Below are positions 5,263-62,259 of a stretch of DNA of 64,000 nucleotides, one piece after another; position 1 is the first letter of the stretch, and each line of letters opens with the position of its first letter. The notes below the pieces were generated by a model that was given only the letters and a program-made list of their open reading frames with translations, was not told where the DNA came from and ran no database searches. Source of the stretch: Deltaproteobacteria bacterium (GTDB lineage Bacteria; Desulfobacterota; Desulfobacteria; Desulfobacterales; ETH-SRB1). The DNA is taken from positions 16,360 to 80,359 of the forward strand of contig JAJSZW010000001.1 in NCBI GenBank assembly GCA_030262895.1, read 5' to 3'. A program made the translations under genes and the position numbers.

Positions 5263-5287
5263 TCCGTTCCTCTTCTTTCTAAATAGA

Positions 5288-5424
5288 GCCTGAACGAAAA
5301 CTGCTAATTTTTCCAATTTCTGCGCCAGGCTTAAATTTTAATCCTCAAAATACTCAATGTATTCCTGCGGTTAAAATTTGCGCCTTCCTTGAACTTGAAA
5401 AAATTTTCTAGTTTTCGTTCGGGC
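5288..5424 (-). repeat. B-family nested-palindrome element, copy B3 (inverted relative to B1/B2)
   Basis: The reverse complement matches the ~70-nt core of B1/B2 (gttcaaggaaggcg.aaatttta...ggaatacattgagtatt..gagg.ttaaaattt). It has its own terminal inverted repeat, cctgaacgaaaact / agttttcgttcggg. Confidence 0.8.
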
Positions 5425-5487
5425 ACTAAATGTGGCCTTATTTTCCTGCGTTCACACAAAAAATACGTTTTCCGAATTCAAAACGTT

Positions 5488-7831: not shown

Positions 7832-7837
7832 AATTTC

Positions 7838-8000
7838 AACCTAAGTTGAGCGATTTTTTGCGAAGAAATGTGCCGAGATCTTAATGCAGCTAGGTTTGCG
7901 AAAAGCGTAGGCATACCAATGGATATGTCGAGACTTTTCGCAAGTCCTTGATGCGCAAGAGATTGGTGCAGGTCGAGTAAAAAATTGCTCAATTTAGGTT
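7838..8000 (+). repeat. C-family nested-palindrome element, copy C1
   Basis: 22-nt terminal inverted repeat aacctaagttgagcgatttttt / aaaaaattgctcaatttaggtt (20/22). Inner repeat ttgcgaaaag / cttttcgcaa flanks the core cgtaggcataccaatggatatgtcgag. Confidence 0.75.
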
Positions 8001-8043: not shown

Positions 8044-8207
8044 GTAACTACTCAGGTTGATAGGCTGAAGGCTGAAGACTGTTAGGAAAAAGCGCATTTT
8101 GAAGCCATGTTTGGTGCAAGAATCAGATGTTTCCGCTAAAGTACGGCAATCGTGCTCTTCTGACCCCTTCAGCCTTCAGCCTGACTACGTGACTACGTGA
8201 GTAGTTA
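8044..8207 (+). repeat. A-family MITE-like element, copy A1
   Basis: Termini gtaactactcagg...cgtgagtagtta. Arms ggctgaaggctgaag / cttcagccttcagcc. About 90% identical to the reverse complement of 56413..56584. The right end covers the stop codon of the receiver gene. Confidence 0.85.
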
Positions 8208-8597
8208 AGACAAAAGTTTCTTTATCATTGCCCCCAATTCTTCGGGCTCGACCGGTTTTTCAAGATAGGCTTCCGGTTCCGGCACCGGTTGATCTCCAAA
8301 CTCGTCAAGGGCCTTCTGAGAGCGGAGAAAGGTTCTTTTGGCTATTCCGGAAAGCACGATTACCGGAATGTCACTAAATTGAGAATCCGTTTTTAATGCA
8401 CGATACATCTTGATACCGCTTTCCTTAGGCATTAATATATCCAGGATAATTAAAGCCGGTTTTTCCTCTTTGACCTTACCCATACCCTCTTCGCCGTCTT
8501 TTGCAATCTCCGGCTTATAGCCACTGTCTTCCACAACGCTTGAAGAAAATGTTCTCACATCAACGTCATCATCAACAATCAGCACCTTTTTCGCCAT
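8205..8597 (-). CDS. Single-domain response regulator (CheY-like receiver)
   Basis: 130 aa. Carries VLIVDDDVDV, ILDILMPKESG and a conserved K region. Confidence 0.85.
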   Translation of the reverse strand: MAKKVLIVDDDVDVRTFSSSVVEDSGYKPEIAKDGEEGMGKVKEEKPALIILDILMPKESGIKMYRALKTDSQFSDIPVIVLSGIAKRTFLRSQKALDEFGDQPVPEPEAYLEKPVEPEELGAMIKKLLS

Positions 8598-10290: not shown

Positions 10291-10357
10291 CACAGTTGGC
10301 AGTTAACGGTTTCTCAAAACATAAAACCGTGAACTGTAAACCGACAACCGTGAACTG
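10291..10357. repeat. GTGAACCG-word hairpin element (copy a)
   Basis: cacagttggcagttaacggtt - loop - aaccgtgaactgtaaaccgacaaccgtgaactg. It fills the gap between two kinase genes. The right arm is nearly identical to the one at 38706..38731. Confidence 0.7.
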
Positions 10358-12397
10358 CTATTCTGAAATAGCGGGAAATGTCATTTTAAAGGAAGTCCCC
10401 ACATTTTCTTTACTTTCAACAGTGATCTCTCCCCCATAGTCTTTAACAATCTCATAACTTATAGACAACCCAAGTCCTGTTCCAGCGCCGATTTTTTTGG
10501 TTGTAAGAAATGGTTCAAAGATCTTGTCAATAATATCAGCCGGTATCCCCTTTCCGTTATCTGAAACTATTGCTACAACTTGTTTGTCTTCCGCAAAAGT
10601 CCTGACCTTTATAATTTTTTTCCAGGTTTTTCCTCTTTCCTCCAAAGCATCACGCGCATTAGTAATCAGATTAATAAATACCTGCTCCAGTCTGTTATGA
10701 TCCGCCAGTATTGGAGGAAGATTTTCAGCAAGATCCAACTCTATATCTATCTGATGAAGAATTAATTGCTGATTTAATACCTTGAAGACATCGGCAATCG
10801 GTTTATTGATATTAACCTCGGATCGTGTAGCGTCAGATGGTCTTGCAAATTCTCTCATATGATTGATTATCTCACTCGCCCGGTCAACATACCTGCTCAT
10901 CTCTTCTGCCATGGTACGAAATGTCTCTTTATCTATACTTTCACCTCTGCCTATCATCTTTATAAAAAAATCACTCCCCACCTTAATGACATTGAGCGGC
11001 TGATTCAACTCATGAGCAATGCCGGAAGCCATAGTGCCAAGTGCCGACATCTTGCCGGCCTGAATTAATTGAGCTTCTTTTTCAACGCTTTCAGTAACAT
11101 CAGAAGTCGTTATAATCAGCACATTTTGCTTCATATATTCTGCAGGACGTACATGAATGTTGACATAAAAAAATCCATTATCTTTCCTGCAATGCTGCCT
11201 TTTTAAATAAAGGAGAGTCTTGCCCTTTTTAATTGAAGCAAAATCATCAATTATATCTTTGTATGCTATGTTTGAAAGATCAAAAAAGGACTTTTGCAGA
11301 AATTCTTCTCGTGAATAGCCATAATAGCCTTGAGCTGTCTCATTTACATCCAGGATGGCAAATGTCCCGCCGTCGACAATAAAAATCGGATTCGGATCAG
11401 CATTGAACAGATCCCGGTATTTTTTTTCAGAAATTATCAATTCCATTTCAAATTGATTGAGACTGAAAAGCATGTGTTTAAATGAATCGGCCAGACGCGT
11501 TATTTCATCTCCGGAGTATTTTTTATAAATTTCGCACTTAATACACCCCTCAAGCTTTTCCGGAAACTTTTCTGAATGCTTTGACCGACAGAGAGTATTC
11601 TGCACAAACCAGCACGGCATGTCTGTCCCGCCATATGCAGGACACTCTGTTTTGTTACAATCCGATTCTTCCCAACACTTAATAGTTTTGCCGAATTGGA
11701 TTATGGATTTTCCGTGACTGGCCAGGTTTGCCATGGAGGTAAGCCTGGAAATAGGACGTGTAATATAATGCGAAAGCCACAGAGTCAGAAAAAACCCCGC
11801 AGCTCCAATAAGAATCAGGGTAACTACAATTTCACGGTTTCTAAGCGCTATAATTCTTTTTTCTGTTGGTAACCAGCTAATCCCCACAGACAATACACCC
11901 AGCATATTTTTTTCTGTTCCGTGACACTCATTGCAAGCTTTTTCATTTTTGATGGGCATAGCATAGCTGATAACTTTTTCTTTCCCATAGTATTCAAAGC
12001 CATTAACCAGGCTTTTGCTTTGCAAACTCCTTTTAGTAATTTCAGAATTAATTGAACTGCCGATAAGGTCGGCATTGCCGGCATGCTTTATAATTCCGTT
12101 CCAATCACAAAGAATGATTCTATGTAACTCTTCAGCTTCATTCAAGTCTTCTAATATTTTCTGAACATATTCCATCTCACCGTCGAGCATCGGATATTCA
12201 ATGCTTCGCATAACAATATTGCTGACCTTAAGCGCCCTGCTCTCTTGCTCCACAGTATAAAACTTTATCTGCCTTATTGTCTGGTAATAAGTAAAAAAGC
12301 CCATTACGCTACACAAAATCAGGGAGAACCCCAATATTATTTTATTTCTCAGGTTATTGCGAACAAGATTTGAGATAAAGGCTATTTTAAATGGCAT
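10358..12397 (-). CDS. Sensor histidine kinase with a periplasmic CXXCH (heme c) motif, a cytoplasmic Cys-rich module and PAS
   Basis: 679 aa. Two TM segments bracket a ~160-aa loop containing ACNECHG. After TM2 comes [30 protein letters not shown]...CIKC. Then PAS, H-box [11 protein letters not shown] and ATPase boxes [24 protein letters not shown]. Confidence 0.85.
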
Positions 12398-14278: not shown

Positions 14279-14295
14279 AACAATTCTTTATATTT

Positions 14296-14462
14296 TGAGA
14301 CCGTTGAAAAATGATCAGTTTTGTTACAGTTCAAGGAAGGCGAAAATTTTAAACGTAGTAATACATTGAGTATTTCGAGGCTTAAAATTTGAGCCTGACA
14401 CCGACACTTTAGTGAAGCTTTAGCGCTAATTGGACAAAAGGGGGCGTTTTGCAAAGGTCTCA
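14296..14462 (+). repeat. B-family nested-palindrome element, copy B1
   Basis: Terminal repeat tgagaccgttgaaaa / ttttgcaaaggtctca. About 88% identical to B2 (51076..51217) apart from a ~24-nt insertion. It starts 18 nt from the activator ATG at 14278. Confidence 0.85.
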
Positions 14463-14747: not shown

Positions 14748-16418
14748 ATGAACACTGAACGCGAAAAGATCGAATTTGATGTGCTGTTTGTTGGCGGCGG
14801 CCCTGCAAGCCTTGCGGGCGCAATAAGATTGATGCAGATTGCAAGAGAAAAAGATATAAATCTTGAAGTGGCTCTCATTGAAAAAGGATCGGATATAGGA
14901 TCAAATGCTTTGAGCGGAGCTGTTTTAAATCCCATTGCATTAAAAGAGCTTGTACCTGATTTTCTGCAAAGAGGCTGTCCAATTGAAAAAACGGTAAGGG
15001 GTGACGAATTTTACTTCCTGACAAAGAATAAATATTATCATCTACCTATTATACCAAGATACATGCATAACAAAAATTTCTTTATTATCAGTCTATCTAA
15101 ATTTACAAAGTGGCTTGCGGGCATAGCAGAAGAACTTGGGGTAAATATATTCCCGGGTTTTGCAGGGAAAGAGATTCTTTATGCCTTAGATCAAAAGACA
15201 ATAACCGGAGTTCGCACAGGTGATAAAGGACTTGGAAAGGACGGTGCCCCAAAAGGCAATTTTGAACCAGGAATAGATTTGCTGGCTAAAGTTACTGTTT
15301 TGGGAGAAGGTTCAAAGGGAAGTCTCCTCAAAGATATTGAGGAAAAGCTTGATATTTTTTCCGGAAAGATGCCGCAGGTTTTTGAAACCGGGATTAAAGA
15401 AGTTATACAGCTTCCTGAAAAAAACTATTTTACAACCAGCAAAGGCAACGATATTCATACTTGCGGTTATCCATTAGGCATTAATACACCGGGTGGTGGA
15501 TTTATTTATGAAATGAAAGACAACAAGGTTTCCATAGGATTTCTTACAGCTCTGTCCTATAGGGACCCAAGGCTTGATCCTTACGAAGAATTCATAAAAT
15601 TCAAGCGACATCCTTTTGTGGCAGATATTATTAAAAATGGTAAAGTAATAGAACAAGGCGCAAGGACTGTTCCTACCGGAGGATATTTTACAATGCCGGT
15701 GCTCTCTGTTGATGGTGGAGTATTTGTCGGGGGCTGCGCTTCAATACATAATACTCCGGGGCTTAAAGGTATCCATGTATCTATGAAGTCCGGTATGCTG
15801 GCAGCAGAAGCGATTGTGGAATCTATTGAAAAGAACAGCTTTACTCAGAAGACTCTCGGTCATTATCATGAATTATTTGAAAAAAGCTGGGTAAAGGAAG
15901 AAATTTTTGAAGGAAGAAATTTTTCACAGGCGCTTTCGAAAAGCGGATTGTTTAAATTTATACTTCTTGGAGCTCAATATTTCACAAAAGGACGGGGTAT
16001 ATATGATAATATGCCTATTGAAGAAGATTGCAAAACATTAAGGATTGCAGAAAATGGTGGGCATGCCGGGAAAAATTTGGACAAAAAGGTTTTTGATGGT
16101 GTTTTGTATGTAGATAAACTTACAGGTGTTTATCTTTCAAAAACCATGCACAGGGAGGACCAGCCGTGCCACATTATAGTTCATGATAAGAATTTATGTG
16201 TTAATCAATGCTACACAAATTATCAATGCCCCTGCACTAAATTTTGTCCAGGTAATGTTTACGAAATTGAAATAGACGAAAAGACTTCTCAAAGACGACT
16301 TAAACTTAACCCAGCCAACTGCCTTCACTGCAAAACTTGCGAGATCAAGGATCCGTTCAGGAATATTACCTGGACATGCCCGGAGGGTGGCGATGGCCCA
16401 GGTTATACTATACTTTAG
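14748..16418 (+). CDS. Electron-transfer flavoprotein:quinone oxidoreductase (ETF-QO/FixC-FixX fusion type)
   Basis: FAD-binding fold DVLFVGGGPASLAGA at the N-terminus and a C-terminal ferredoxin-like Cys cluster (CPCTKFCP...CLHCKTCEIKDP). ORF-track start 14661 is a GTG; the ATG at 14748 is preferred. Confidence 0.85.
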   Translation: MNTEREKIEFDVLFVGGGPASLAGAIRLMQIAREKDINLEVALIEKGSDIGSNALSGAVLNPIALKELVPDFLQRGCPIEKTVRGDEFYFLTKNKYYHLPIIPRYMHNKNFFIISLSKFTKWLAGIAEELGVNIFPGFAGKEILYALDQKTITGVRTGDKGLGKDGAPKGNFEPGIDLLAKVTVLGEGSKGSLLKDIEEKLDIFSGKMPQVFETGIKEVIQLPEKNYFTTSKGNDIHTCGYPLGINTPGGGFIYEMKDNKVSIGFLTALSYRDPRLDPYEEFIKFKRHPFVADIIKNGKVIEQGARTVPTGGYFTMPVLSVDGGVFVGGCASIHNTPGLKGIHVSMKSGMLAAEAIVESIEKNSFTQKTLGHYHELFEKSWVKEEIFEGRNFSQALSKSGLFKFILLGAQYFTKGRGIYDNMPIEEDCKTLRIAENGGHAGKNLDKKVFDGVLYVDKLTGVYLSKTMHREDQPCHIIVHDKNLCVNQCYTNYQCPCTKFCPGNVYEIEIDEKTSQRRLKLNPANCLHCKTCEIKDPFRNITWTCPEGGDGPGYTIL

Positions 16419-16496
16419 GGTTTGTAAGGGCTCGGGGCTAATAATATTGCCACTTGACTGTTTTGTTAAACTGGCATAATTATTATAATAAACATT

Positions 16497-16740
16497 GTAA
16501 CCGTTCACGGTTACCGGTTATACAGTTCACGGTTCAAAAAGACAAAAAGCAGAAGCGAATTATGGGATCGGCTGCGGAGCTGAGAACACAGATTTATATT
16601 TCACGAGAGGTTAATATATTTTCTGATTTAGATGCGAAAGAATTAATTCAAAAGTTGAAATCAAGATCCAAAATGCTTCAATCGTTGCATAGTTCATTGA
16701 AAAAACTGTGAACTGTGAACCGACAACCGTGAACGGTTAC
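16497..16740. repeat. GTGAACCG-word nested-palindrome element (copy b, long form)
   Basis: Termini gtaaccgttcacggtt...aaccgtgaacggttac (perfect 16-nt inverted repeat). The arms are tandem cacggtt / gtgaac words around a ~170-nt core. Confidence 0.8.
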
Positions 16741-16773
16741 TAAACATTTATATCTTTGGAGAATAACTATTAT

Positions 16774-26333: not shown

Positions 26334-26407
26334 GTAACTGTTCAGGTTGCCGGTTCACGGTTTACGGTTCACGGTTGGTTGTATGGAACCGTGAACCGAG
26401 TAATTAC
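26334..26407. repeat. GTGAACCG-word hairpin element (copy c)
   Basis: gtaactgttcaggttgccggttcacggtttacggttcacggtt - loop - aaccgtgaaccgagtaattac. Confidence 0.75.
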
Positions 26408-26449: not shown

Positions 26450-26502
26450 GGATATGTCGAGATTTTTCGCAAATCCTTGATGCGCAAGACATTAGTGCAG
26501 GT
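26450..26502 (+). repeat. C-family element fragment (right half), copy C2
   Basis: ggatatgtcgagatttttcgcaaatccttgatgcgcaagacattagtgcagg matches 7921..7972 of C1 with a few substitutions. It abuts the lpxC stop. Confidence 0.7.
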
Positions 26503-31773: not shown

Positions 31774-31955
31774 ATAACTACTCAGGTTGGTTAGGCTGAA
31801 GACTGAAGACTGAAGACCTTTAGGGAAAAGACTCCCAGAAGCCAATATTTTCTTAAAGCGGCCTGAAATTTTGTCTTAAACTTAGAGAATAACGCTCAGG
31901 AATCATCTGTTTCCTTCAGCCTTATAGCCTTCAGTCTAAACACCTGAGAACTTAC
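31774..31955 (+). repeat. A-family MITE-like element, copy A3 (long variant)
   Basis: ataactactcaggttggttaggctgaagactgaagactgaag ... ccttcagccttatagccttcagtctaaacacctgagaacttac. A4 is its inverted deletion derivative. Confidence 0.85.
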
Positions 31956-31987: not shown

Positions 31988-32140
31988 TGAAACGGTCAGG
32001 ATTATAAGGAAAAATTAAACCACGAAGGACACGAAGGGGCACGAAGATTAGAATTAATGCTTTTTATAATTTCTTTGTGTTCTTCGTGAGCTTTGTGGTG
32101 AAAAAAACATAATAAAAAAGCTCAGATTTTGACCGTTCAC
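31988..32140. repeat. CACGAAG-word nested-palindrome element
   Basis: Outer repeat aacggtca / tgaccgtt. Inner arms accacgaaggacacgaaggggcacgaaga / tcttcgtgagctttgtggt. Confidence 0.6.
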
Positions 32141-38647: not shown

Positions 38648-38731
38648 TTCACGGTTTACAGTTAACGGTCTACAGTTAACTGTTGCTCAAAAATATAAAA
38701 CTATTAACTGTAAACCGACAACCGTGAACCG
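38648..38731. repeat. GTGAACCG-word hairpin element (copy e)
   Basis: ttcacggtttacagttaacggtctacagttaactgtt - loop - aactgtaaaccgacaaccgtgaaccg. Confidence 0.75.
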
Positions 38732-38737
38732 CTACAA

Positions 38738-41576: not shown

Positions 41577-41881
41577 AGAGAAAAGTTTTATAGGAAACAG
41601 ACAGGTTAATGTCAAGGTAAAACGTAACTACTTAGGTTCGCGGTTTTTTTTAAAATGAATTTTTGGCTACCAACTTAAGGCGGAACGCTTCTGATCAAAA
41701 ACCCTGTCAAGAAAAATATCTTGTTGTTTTCAAAAAAATCATGTTTGCTGTTTGAGCCATATATTGCTATAAATAAAATCCACCTGCACACGTTTTGCCG
41801 ATTTTGTGGGGTATTTATAGACCAGCTATTTCAAATGGCAAAAACCGCTCAATTTAGGTTTAAACAAAGGAAGATGTAAAA

Positions 41882-42121: not shown

Positions 42122-42224
42122 TTTTGTGACCGACACTCAGGCCCTTGTAAAATTTATGATGGGCAAAAAGCCAGGTAGGGTGCATTCTATGCACTATCAA
42201 CGGCATATGGTATCATCTATATAA
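42114..42224 (+). pseudogene. Truncated PIN (VapC-like) toxin, only ~19 native codons left
   Basis: MDSFVTDTQALVKFMMGKK resembles a VapC N-terminus with the first catalytic Asp. The reading frame then runs into REP doublet A and stops. Confidence 0.45.
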
Positions 42225-42306
42225 TGATAAAATGTCTTGATGAGCAAAATTGAATGTTTTTTGGTGCGTAAAACACGCCCTGCGGTTTACAAACAATGAT
42301 TGAGCA
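42169..42306 (+). repeat. REP doublet A (two inverted GTAG-hairpin REPs plus spacer)
   Basis: gtagggtgcattctatgcac and, inverted, ggtgcgtaaaacacgccctgc. About 85% identical over ~140 nt to 46189..46329. Lies directly upstream of the RayT remnant. Confidence 0.8.
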
Positions 42307-42312
42307 CGGCTT

Positions 42313-42450
42313 ATGCCGAACTATCGACGGGCAAATATTAAAGGTGGCGCTTATTTCTTTACCGTGGTGACTTATCGGCGACAAAATTTCTATGCAATAA
42401 AAATGTCCGAAAGGCATTACTTGATGGTATCCGGCATAGGGTGGGCGATG
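42313..42450 (+). pseudogene. REP-associated tyrosine transposase (RayT/TnpA_REP) 5' remnant, frameshifted and truncated
   Basis: MPNYRRANIKGGAYFFTVVTYRRQNF matches the RayT N-terminus (E. coli YafM has YYIKGGTWFFTVNLRNRR). A 1-nt loss in a T-run near 42388 shifts the frame to LCNKNVRKALLDGIRHRV. Similarity ends near 42440, and that frame continues into the methyltransferase ORF. Confidence 0.7.
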
Positions 42451-46188: not shown

Positions 46189-46329
46189 AGCCAGGTAGGG
46201 TGCATTCTATGTACCATCAGCGGCATGCCTATCATCGCATACATGAATGATAAAATATCTTGACGGGCAAAATCGAATGTTTTCTGGTGCGTAAAACGCA
46301 CCCTACGATTTACAAACAATGATTGAGCA
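46189..46329 (+). repeat. REP doublet B
   Basis: gtagggtgcattctatgtacc and, inverted, ggtgcgtaaaacgcaccctac (perfect REP hairpin gggtgcg-tttta-cgcaccc on the minus strand). Direct repeat of 42169..42306. Followed by fic instead of rayT. Confidence 0.8.
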
Positions 46330-51075: not shown

Positions 51076-51217
51076 GAGACCTTTGAAAAATGTTCAATTT
51101 TGTTCAAGTTCAAGGAAGGCGAAAATTTTAAATGTAGGAATACATTGAGTATTTCGAGGCTTAAAATTTGAGACTGACGCTGAAATTGGGCAAAAGGGGG
51201 CGTATTGCAAAGGTTTC
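51076..51217 (+). repeat. B-family nested-palindrome element, copy B2
   Basis: gagacctttgaaaaatg...gttcaaggaaggcgaaaattttaaatgtaggaatacattgagtatttcgaggcttaaaatttgag...cgtattgcaaaggtttc. Ends 14 nt before the dsrM ATG. Confidence 0.85.
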
Positions 51218-56337: not shown

Positions 56338-56412
56338 GTATAAGAAATAGAAATAATTATCGCTGATTAAAAAAGGGTTTGTTCTATTAATTGGACAAGC
56401 CCTTTTTATTTT

Positions 56413-56584
56413 GTGACTACTCACGTAGTCAGGCTGAAGCTGTTTAGGCTGAAGGCTGAAGGGGTCAAAAAAGCACGATTGCAGTACTTTGGCGGAAATA
56501 TCTGATTCTTGCACCAAACATGGCTTCAAAATGCGCTTTTCCCTAACAGTCTTCAGCCTTCAGCCTATCCACCTGAGTAGTTAC
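56413..56584 (-). repeat. A-family MITE-like element, copy A2 (inverted)
   Basis: gtgactactcacgtagtcaggctgaag...cttcagccttcagcctatccacctgagtagttac. Its reverse complement aligns with A1 at ~90% identity, with one indel near one end. Lies between convergent dsrP and fdhD. Confidence 0.85.
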
Positions 56585-56594
56585 TTTATTTTAA

Positions 56595-57617: not shown

Positions 57618-57935
57618 ATGTACGCTGTAGTTTCTTCAGGCGGAAAACAATATAAAGTTCAGAAAGGTGAAATCCTTAGAGTCGAAAAGATCTCAGGGGA
57701 TATTGGCGTTCCTGTTACATTTGACAAAGTCCTCATGTTTTCGGACGGTGAAAATGTTAACATAGGACAGCCTGTTCTTGAAAATGTTTTAGTTAATGGT
57801 CATATAGTTGAACAGGATAAAGCAAAAAAGATTATTGTTTTCAAATACAAAAGGCGCAAAAGATATCGCAGGAAACAGGGACATCGTCAGCAGTATACTG
57901 CTGTCAAAATAGACGATATCTTGCAAAATAGTTAG
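57618..57935 (+). CDS. rplU: 50S ribosomal protein L21
   Basis: MYAVVSSGGKQYKV...; 105 aa; GGGAGG Shine-Dalgarno. Confidence 0.95.
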   Translation: MYAVVSSGGKQYKVQKGEILRVEKISGDIGVPVTFDKVLMFSDGENVNIGQPVLENVLVNGHIVEQDKAKKIIVFKYKRRKRYRRKQGHRQQYTAVKIDDILQNS

Positions 57936-57942
57936 TTTTATT

Positions 57943-58059
57943 GTAACTACTCAGGCGTTTAGACTGAAGGTTATAGGCTGAAGGAAACAGATGATTCCTG
58001 AGTGTTATTCTCTTTCCTAAAAGTCTTCAGTCTTCAGCCTAACCAACCTGAGTAGTTAC
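57943..58059 (-). repeat. A-family MITE-like element, copy A4 (short, inverted) between rplU and rpmA
   Basis: gtaactactcaggcgtttagactgaagg...cttcagtcttcagcctaaccaacctgagtagttac. Its reverse complement equals A3 minus a ~60-nt internal segment. Confidence 0.85.
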
Positions 58060-58088
58060 GTTTTATTTTATATTAAGGAGTTGTAGTA

Positions 58089-62203: not shown

Positions 62204-62233
62204 AAAACCGTAAACCGTGAACTGTAAACCGTT
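62204..62233. repeat. GTGAACCG-word fragment (copy g) after proA
   Basis: aaaaccgtaaaccgtgaactgtaaaccgtt. One arm only. Confidence 0.55.
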
Positions 62234-62259
62234 ATTATTTATCATGAAAGGTCTATTTT

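Follow-up and report, generated by a model that had tools for sequence, protein, structure and literature searches.

What are the hairpin-forming repeats that recur at four places in a 64,000-nt stretch of a Desulfobacterales genome, and how did they come to be there? The stretch, hereafter the window, covers positions 16,360 to 80,359 of contig JAJSZW010000001.1 (assembly GCA_030262895.1, Deltaproteobacteria bacterium, lineage ETH-SRB1), and the repeats, here the A family, comprise A1 (8044–8208, plus strand), A2 (56413–56584, minus strand), A3 (31774–31955, plus strand) and A4 (57943–58059, minus strand). Our analysis indicates that A1–A4 are MITEs (miniature inverted-repeat transposable elements) that bear terminal inverted repeats (TIRs) of the ISBst12 group of the IS66 family of insertion sequences (IS), are probably moved in trans, and belong to a family allied to a cassette with a PF05635 gene.

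Four hairpin-forming elements of two subfamilies

All four copies listed in the initial annotation of the window are located, with coordinates that agree within 1 nt. A1, a 165-nt MITE of the A1/A2 subfamily, starts with the canonical end GTAACTACTCAGG at 8044 and closes with a variant end, ...CGTGAGTAGTTAA, at 8208, while A2, a 172-nt MITE of the same subfamily, lies in the orientation opposite to A1. Pairwise alignment of A1 with reverse-complemented A2 gives 92.1% identity, close to the ~90% first estimated. A3, a 182-nt MITE of the A3/A4 subfamily, has slightly decayed termini (ATAACTACTCAGG ... CCTGAGAACTTAC), and A4, 117 nt long, derives from the A3 type by internal deletion. Specifically, reverse-complemented A4 is 94% identical to A3 across the 117 nt that align, and the 65 gap columns of the alignment bear out the proposal that A4 equals A3 minus an internal ~60 nt. 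The TIRs are perfect over 13 nt in A4, match at 11 of 13 positions in A2 and are decayed in A1 and A3; one end of the A1/A2 subfamily is the variant GTrACTACTCACGTAGTCAGG.

The terminal sequence and the short tandem words next to it are strongly over-represented. In particular, GTAACTACTCAGG with at most two mismatches occurs 10 times in the window against 0.67 occurrences expected, a count that none of 100 shuffles reached, and the double word GGCTGAAGNCTGAAG occurs seven times against 0.36 expected. The number of words ranges from 2 to 4. The elements are 117–182 nt in size, within the MITE range of less than ~300–500 bp, contain no transposase gene and, as previously noted, no open reading frame (ORF) in the ORF listing. 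An 18-codon frame in the A1/A2 core was considered as a small ORF and rejected, since the frame is shifted between the copies and is not conserved; the A1/A2 core is a conserved non-coding sequence.

As RNA, all four elements form long hairpins, with folding energies of −67.5 kcal/mol for A1 (z −6.2), −69.3 kcal/mol for A2 (z −6.6), −54.6 kcal/mol for A3 (z −3.9) and −47 kcal/mol for A4 (z −6.8). With its TIRs and word arrays, each copy, when transcribed, is a hairpin that is perfect or nearly so. At gathering thresholds, no Rfam family, rRNA genes included, is found anywhere in the window. A comparison of A2 with a plasmid collection gave no match, and a literature search for the terminal 12-mers returned only irrelevant matches.

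The A family is mobile

A2 is flanked by an exact 8-bp target-site duplication (TSD), TTTATTTT, at 56405–56412 and 56585–56592, and A4 by another, GTTTTATT, at 57935–57942 and 58060–58067. When the window is screened for GTAA...TTAC pairs whose 13-nt ends match and that are flanked by an 8-bp repeat, exactly three elements emerge, namely A2, A4 and an element of the sister B family at 16497–16740; 30 shuffles gave none.

Relatives provide a textbook empty counterpart of the A4 site. We compared the A4 site with contigs whose L21 protein (the rplU product) is 97–98% identical to that of the window. In eight of these contigs (L118–L125) the site is empty: the spacer reads ...cagttaGTTTTATTttatattaaggag... 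and holds a single GTTTTATT, and the window differs from it only by the 117-nt A4 and a second GTTTTATT.

The A1 site, located in the spacer between a receiver gene and a Usp gene, was compared among contigs whose receiver protein is 98–100% identical to that of the window. The site is empty in four of them (L220 and L222–L224; spacer 112–116 nt), an A1-type element occupies it in six further contigs, and a B-type element with GGTTCAC words occupies it in three (L221, L225 and L226). The left junction of the B-type occupant, TCTTAA followed directly by CTACTCAGG next to the receiver stop codon, is identical to that of A1, which suggests that the interior was swapped between family members and that these are not two independent insertions. 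Consistent with such exchange, one hybrid element (L078) combines an A-type left end with a B-type right end; together with the A1-site junctions, it suggests frequent recombination or replacement within the family. The closest relatives of the window, as judged from L21 and the receiver, are metagenome-assembled genomes (MAGs) labelled Desulfobacterales or 'Deltaproteobacteria'.

At the A2 site, no empty allele was found among the relatives, which carry either A2 or a different GTAA...TTAC element. The latter, observed in L120, L122 and L123 (~372–528, orthologous to 56405–56592 of the window), is ~156 nt long, has the ends GTAAAAGTTCACCACGG ... CTGTGGTGAATTAC and sits at the exact A2 target, with a flanking repeat that is the same or nearly the same as that of A2. 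Either this terminator tail attracts insertions as a hot spot, or a GTAA-type element has taken the place of another.

Strong hairpins that lie between genes, by terminators and within an operon, might instead never have moved and be kept by selection, as conserved RNAs with a structured regulatory or terminator role or as REP-like hairpins. We give this explanation practically no credence. The difference between filled and empty sites is exactly one element plus one 8-bp duplication, which refutes it; moreover, the same site has different occupants in different relatives, no Rfam family matches, and the copies lie in unrelated contexts in many phyla. The initial annotation had described a non-autonomous, structured family that was or is mobile and had suggested a search for TSDs and empty sites. 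The exact duplications at A2 and A4, the empty A4 and A1 sites, the polymorphism at the A1 site and the many copies elsewhere support that description, and the copies in many genomes and the polymorphic sites contradict a family confined to four fixed loci. Mobility is therefore established.

To delimit the spread of the family, one genome per species was scanned with the pattern TAACTACTCAGGN{5,9}CTGAAG, which gave at least 115 stretches, the window itself not among them; ~87 chance matches are calculated for the whole collection, so that single matches prove little. Among the 115 loci listed, there are 82 plus/minus terminus pairs 47–322 nt apart. In these loci and the window, exact 8-bp TSDs flank 26 of the 81 elements with both flanks, and TSDs with one mismatch flank another 12 of the 81, against 0 of 322 outward-shifted flank controls with at most one mismatch. 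A+T makes up 75% of the duplicated targets and 53% of the host loci. Clean TSDs are found in many Desulfobacterota MAGs, in Nitrospirota (including Nitrospira on contigs of >200 kb), in Methylomirabilis (NC10), in Nitrospinota and in unclassified 'Pseudomonadota' MAGs, and an anammox MAG contains copies with less clean flanks, so that the family extends across phyla. A1/A2-type copies in several other MAGs are 88–99% identical to the window copies.

The termini match those of ISBst12-group insertion sequences

IS66-family inverted repeats begin with GTAAGCG, and the elements produce 8-bp direct repeats (PMC11946415). ISDge4 of Deinococcus geothermalis, a single-ORF member of the ISBst12 group of this family whose transposition has been observed, is bounded by the TIRs GTGACTACTCAGCA and GTAACTGCTCAGCA, its direct repeat being 8 bp long (PMC12898284). 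We delimited single-ORF IS66-like IS on annotated plasmids of cultured bacteria. The same terminus rule holds in seven of eight further plasmid IS and in the IS of Geobacillus pHTA426. Specifically, TIR and TSD are GTAACTACTCAGCTTC/A and AATTTATC in the 1,630-bp IS of B. thuringiensis, GTAACTATTCAGCC and AAAAGAAC in that of G. stearothermophilus, GTATCTATTCAGCCC / GTAACTATTCAGCCC and GACGAGTT in that of G. kaustophilus pHTA426, and GTAACTGCTCAGCAGG and CGTCGAAT in that of D. grandis. Exact 8-bp TSDs also flank the IS of Acaryochloris (TIR GTTACTGCCCAGGCT, TSD CTTCATTC), Octadecabacter (TIR GTAACTCCCAAG, TSD TTTATTTG) and Streptomyces (TIR GTAAGCATTCAG, TSD AAGCCGAG).

An alignment of nine plasmid-type transposases led to 80 metagenomic relatives; TIRs could be recognised in 64 of them, and their consensus is GTAACTACTCAG(C/G)C. 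In nine of these 64 IS (L146, L151, L167, L168 and L181 among them), one end is exactly GTAACTACTCAGG, and a direct search finds this exact 13-mer in 13 of the 80 loci. In particular, the 1,590-bp IS of L151 (TSD CCCAAAAT) and the IS of L168 (TSD TTCAAAAG) end with the MITE 13-mer, and the right end of the IS of L181 agrees with the MITE over 17 nt. The domains PF03050, PF13005 and PF20042 are present in homologues of the L181 transposase. Because the 12–13 terminal nucleotides of the A family match the 64-IS consensus and the duplication has the same length of 8 bp, the A-family ends are ISBst12-group ends. Because A1–A4 encode no PF03050 transposase, they are derivatives and not members of the IS66/ISBst12 group.

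The initial annotation had also called for a larger element with the same termini that carries a transposase. Such elements exist, as the ISBst12-type IS in metagenomes, and none was found in the window or in the same lineage. A tblastn search with a Geobacillus ISBst12-group transposase against the loci and the window revealed no relic, no recurrent transposase emerged when all ORFs in the 115 loci that encode 150 aa or more were clustered, and a relaxed search of these loci for terminus pairs 0.9–4 kb apart revealed none with a transposase. Two long terminus pairs considered as full-length IS were rejected, one (L086, 121–2398) because it encloses a Ski2-like helicase and the other (L052, 2783–6271) because it encloses ordinary genes; a candidate wordless IS end at position 1587 of L013 was rejected because it abuts an epimerase gene.

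The autonomous ISBst12 IS have TIRs of only ~15 nt and no tandem word arrays. Among the metagenomic IS, two (L160 and L173) are 1,901 bp long, with CCTGAAGCAGGAAGC lying inside TIRs that extend over 40 nt or more, and five (L159, L168, L185, L196 and L213) are 1.9–2.1 kb long, the usual ISBst12-type size being 1.5–1.6 kb. The 300–500 bp by which such IS exceed the usual length may be extra sequence or a passenger.

Larger relatives carry a PF05635 gene

Relatives of the A family contain a gene between the two ends. The left end of a Nitrospira copy (L051) consists of a TIR, words, the Shine-Dalgarno (SD)-like sequence TAGGAG, an ATG and a 118-aa ORF, whose product matches PF05635 ('23S rRNA-intervening sequence protein'; 1.8e-33) and TIGR02436 ('four helix bundle protein'; 5.6e-34), and weakly matches Avd, a protein of diversity-generating retroelements. 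A Desulfobacterales copy (L084, 6009–6491) is 483 nt long and has both TIRs, the exact TSD TTAAATTC and the same PF05635 gene, which is interrupted. In L084 (6250–6320) and in L024 (3305–3385), which belong to different MAGs, the PF05635 ORF is broken at the same position by a ~65-nt hairpin of GGCTGAAG words without GTAAC ends; the L024 copy has no outer TIRs at all.

N-terminal remnants, C-terminal remnants or both of the PF05635 gene, which encodes the intervening-sequence protein (IVP), are detected by tblastn in at least 11 short copies from Nitrospirota, NC10, Desulfobacterota and other MAGs. One of them (L073), a 246-nt copy with an exact TSD, keeps both ends of the gene, as does the copy in L039. 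At each end, A1–A4 have ~45–50 nt in common with the gene-bearing copies, a stretch that takes in the word arrays and the SD-like TTTAGGGA directly upstream of the ORF start. To judge from these retained gene ends and shared flanks, the short elements family-wide are internal-deletion derivatives of a ~0.5-kb PF05635 cassette, and A1–A4 themselves would descend from an IVP-bearing copy. The GGCTGAAG words belong to the cassette, because the autonomous IS have no arrays and because PF05635 genes without GTAAC ends are still flanked by arrays. We found no paper that links PF05635 genes to ISBst12-type ends.

Proposed mechanism and its rivals

In the explanation that we consider probable, an ISBst12-group DDE transposase would bind the GTAACTACTCAG ends and act in trans, inserting the element into AT-rich 8-bp targets that would thereby be duplicated. 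Its gene would lie elsewhere in the genome, or in an element that is co-resident or was present in the past. The fuller form would be a ~460–480-bp 'mobile insertion cassette' (MIC) that comprises the ends, inverted GGCTGAAG word arrays and the 118-aa PF05635/TIGR02436 gene, and short copies would form from it by internal deletion, as A4 from an A3-like copy. We infer that, in this lineage, mobilisation is in fact the work of an ISBst12-group enzyme.

Several observations weigh against this explanation. With regard to the mobiliser, neither the elements nor the window nor the 115 loci listed contain an IS66-family transposase or a relic of one; no autonomous IS with A-type ends is tied to Desulfobacterota or Nitrospirota, and those homologues of the L181 transposase that have named hosts are cyanobacterial only. 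Exact 8-bp TSDs flank just seven of the metagenomic IS and many copies lack matching flanks, a mismatch that assembly chimeras could explain. With regard to the elements, A1 and A3 have no clean TSD. Only two IVP-bearing copies have A-type ends, and the right end of one is truncated and the ORF of the other is interrupted; the cores of A1–A4 yield no PF05635/IVP remnant by tblastn. With regard to host range, the phylum assignments depend on MAG binning, and two Bacteroidota matches (L038 and L063) look like coding-sequence coincidence (NYSGFDPEV) and were rejected.

The lack of an IVP remnant in the A1–A4 cores, together with the distinct conserved sequence of the A1/A2 core, would be accounted for by the reverse order of events, in which the MITEs arose from an ISBst12-type IS or from end-to-end fusions of TIRs, words and PF05635 were captured later, and A1–A4 never had the gene. 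The existence of IVP cassettes with word arrays and no GTAAC ends, which shows that the modules are separable, and the A/B hybrid of L078, which shows that ends recombine, also favour it. We consider this order unlikely, in view of the 45–50 nt per end that A1–A4 share with IVP copies, well beyond the 13-nt TIR, and of the N- and C-terminal gene ends kept in L073 and L039, a classic signature of internal deletion. Moreover, the autonomous ISBst12 IS contain no arrays that could have supplied the arms.

The missing IS66 transposase, in turn, could point to another mobiliser, and the likeness of the termini would then be convergent. Candidates are an unrelated DDE enzyme and a factor acting on the word arrays, which might be the four-helix-bundle protein itself. 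PF05635 cassettes that lack GTAAC ends and yet are scattered over many genomes agree with this possibility, as does the published idea of Ralph and McClelland that the ORF of rRNA intervening sequences (IVSs) encodes a mobility component (PMC4990558). We regard it as quite improbable, since a match of 12–13 nt to the 64-IS consensus combined with the same duplication length leaves a negligible role for chance, and since short copies without an ORF still show fresh insertions with exact TSDs. Furthermore, we know of no catalytic motif for strand transfer in a 118-aa helical bundle of this kind.

Insertion sites and neighbouring genes

The gene contexts first assigned to A1, A2 and A4 are correct. 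A1 overlaps by 4 nt the stop codon of a receiver gene of 130 aa (8205–8597, minus strand), the TAA stop codon being the complement of 8205–8207 within the A1 terminus. The best 120 receiver homologues are all likewise 130 aa long; therefore, A1 does not truncate the receiver, and the TAA stop codon merely coincides with the TAAC of the A1 terminus. A2 lies between a convergent NrfD-family gene (previously designated 'dsrP') and fdhD, and its target is the T-tract of a terminator-like hairpin of the NrfD-family gene, located directly upstream at 56370–56407. A3 lies between divergent genes. A4 occupies the spacer between rplU and rpmA, such that its hairpin (−47 kcal/mol), followed by the U-rich tract GUUUUAUUUU, sits inside the rplU–rpmA operon.

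The family has thus inserted at consequential places, namely an operon interior (A4), a terminator tail (A2) and a stop codon (A1). A4 could attenuate or process the rplU–rpmA transcript, the Shine-Dalgarno sequence of rpmA being left intact. To judge from rRNA IVSs and Correia elements (PMC10969869), the hairpins of the elements, if transcribed, should be substrates of RNase III.

Sister and other repeat families in the window

The B family has the same GTAAC ends as the A family, with GGTTCAC words in place of the A-type words. Its main representative in the window (16497–16740, plus strand) has the ends GTAACCGTTCACGG ... CCGTGAACGGTTAC, GGTTCAC-type words and an exact 8-bp TSD, TAAACATT, at 16489–16496 and 16741–16748. 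It contains a 3′ remnant of a PF05635-like gene (GSAAELRTQIYISREV...SLHSSLKKL) that corresponds to the C-terminus of a more distant homologue, and it is 96.7% identical to L056 4206–4385, where the tblastn match to IVP is weak. A small B-type element (26334–26406, plus strand) consists of GTAACTGTTCAGGTTG, GGTTCAC/GGTTTAC words and AACCGTGAACCGAGTAATTAC, and has no clean TSD. An orphan terminus, GTAACTACTTAGG (41624–41636, plus strand), has no partner end.

Hairpins or arrays of B-type words alone (AACCGTG / AACTGTA ...) without GTAAC termini are located at 10296–10362, 38651–38736 and 62204–62236, in short gaps between co-directional genes, and a separate array contains three copies of CACGAAGG at 32020–32045. 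These hairpins and the CACGAAGG array may be decayed cassettes or independent word hairpins.

Three further repeats have other sequences. Family C adjoins A1 (7834–8000), is ~167 nt long and has the inverted ends AACCTAARTTGAGC ... GCTCAAYTTAGGTT; the window also contains a partial copy at 26450–26502 and a motif at 41845–41858. The C element is 94% identical to L113 4300–4466 and is present or absent in the receiver–Usp spacer of relatives. Family D, ~150 nt long with ends like TAGTGCCCGAACGAAAAC, is represented at 5280–5431, 14292–14461 and 51076–51217 by copies that are 86–91% alike within the window and ~95% identical to copies of the HYP3_UM_29 MAG (L022, L024 and L074); one D copy lies in the A1-site spacer of L228. 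Finally, two intergenic segments of ~140–160 nt that lie 4 kb apart (42169–42329 and 46189–46329), upstream of the ORFs at 42441 and 46365, are 89–92% identical.

Word arrays around PF05635 genes elsewhere

PF05635 genes between inverted arrays of 7–8-nt words are also found on plasmids of the cyanobacteria Calothrix (L128, TTAGCTG), Geminocystis (L130, GGGAAAA) and Pseudanabaena (L127, AGCTTTT), and the same pattern, in weaker form, occurs in Nostoc PCC 7120. The Pseudanabaena cassette, on pPg_01, sits between cas6 and cas4. In two viral contigs (L233 and L234), a PF05635 gene lies between word arrays of the GGCTGTAG type. No GTAAC ends were seen at the cyanobacterial or viral PF05635 cassettes examined.

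The same arrangement has been described in the 23S rRNA IVS of Coxiella, whose terminal stem measures 28 bp and which further comprises an SD-like sequence, GACAGAT three times in tandem and an S23p ORF, and which shows strain-specific deletions; the origin of IVSs remains unclear, an older idea being that they are mobile elements (PMC4990558). In Xanthomonas, GGGAATC arrays form 70–75 convergent pairs that are unexplained (PMC4692102).

We tentatively propose, as a possibility that falls short of being the likelier case, that PF05635 genes in inverted 7–8-nt word arrays constitute one widespread class of mobile cassette, one large lineage of which would have ISBst12/IS66-type ends and a trans-acting transposase. 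On this view, the ORF-containing Coxiella and Leptospira IVSs would go back to insertions of such cassettes into rRNA, from which RNase III could excise them thanks to the TIR stem, and many heptamer-array hairpins that lack an explanation, among them the Xanthomonas GGGAATC pairs and the cyanobacterial STRR-like pairs, would be decayed remains without the ORF. In that case, the four-helix-bundle protein may serve the element, for instance through attachment to the word arrays in DNA or RNA form. The Coxiella, cyanobacterial and Xanthomonas parallels motivate this proposal and do not prove it.

Comparison with known systems

As MITEs within one MAG, A1–A4 are ordinary. The initial annotation recognised their mobility, which stands, and missed the ISBst12-group ends, the cross-phylum spread and the larger members with PF05635. 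We found no prior description of a MITE variant that has ISBst12/IS66-type ends, spreads across phyla and is akin to an IVS-gene cassette; no MITE derived from IS66 or ISBst12 is mentioned in a 2024 review of prokaryotic MITEs.

The ISBst12 group (ISBst12, ISDge4 and ISGst1/ISGka4-like elements), composed of single-ORF DDE IS of ~1.5–1.6 kb, shares with A1–A4 the GTAACT(A/G)CTCAG ends and the 8-bp duplication, whereas A1–A4 are 117–182 bp in size, have no transposase and contain subterminal word arrays that are absent from the autonomous IS. Known MITEs and MICs, including Correia, ERIC, Nezha and the IS231-mobilised MIC231, resemble the window family in size, in being non-coding or having only a passenger, in TIRs, TSDs, copy number and hairpins, in AT-rich intergenic sites and in presumed mobilisation in trans. 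The window family differs from them in its parent IS family and in the passenger of its full form, a PF05635 gene amid inverted word arrays. The REP, BIME and REPIN repeats, which are short imperfect palindromes without TSDs that depend on the Y1 transposase RAYT, do not match the A family, which has 8-bp TSDs and TIRs of the DDE-IS type. The heptamer families of cyanobacteria (STRR-type) and of Xanthomonas (GGGAATC) likewise comprise tandem 7-nt words, often in convergent, hairpin-capable pairs (PMC4692102), and differ in that their arrays are not tied to TIRs, TSDs or a transposase.

The assignment attaches a transposase family to a repeat of Desulfobacterota, Nitrospirota (including Nitrospira), NC10, Nitrospinota and anammox MAGs, and it provides a rule for annotation, namely GTAACTACTCAGG followed by word arrays, with an 8-bp duplication. 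It also ties the long-unexplained genes annotated as PF05635, 'S23 ribosomal protein' or four-helix-bundle protein, which are relatives of Avd, to a concrete transposition mechanism.

The ORF-containing 23S IVSs of Coxiella burnetii and Leptospira, here compared by description, have the same layout as the cassette, with a stem, heptamers, an SD-like sequence, a start codon and a PF05635 ORF of ~120 aa, and a similar size (428–444 nt, versus ~460–480 nt for the cassette), and ORF decay and internal deletions occur in both (PMC4990558). In contrast to these IVSs, the A family does not lie in rRNA genes and has defined ends and 8-bp duplications; of the features of the PF05635 cassette type, A1–A4 have the stem and the 7–8-nt words, and have neither the ORF nor a location in helix 25 or 45 of 23S rRNA. 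The likeness of the cassette to the Coxiella IVS makes the ~30-year-old question of IVS origin (PMC4990558) directly testable.

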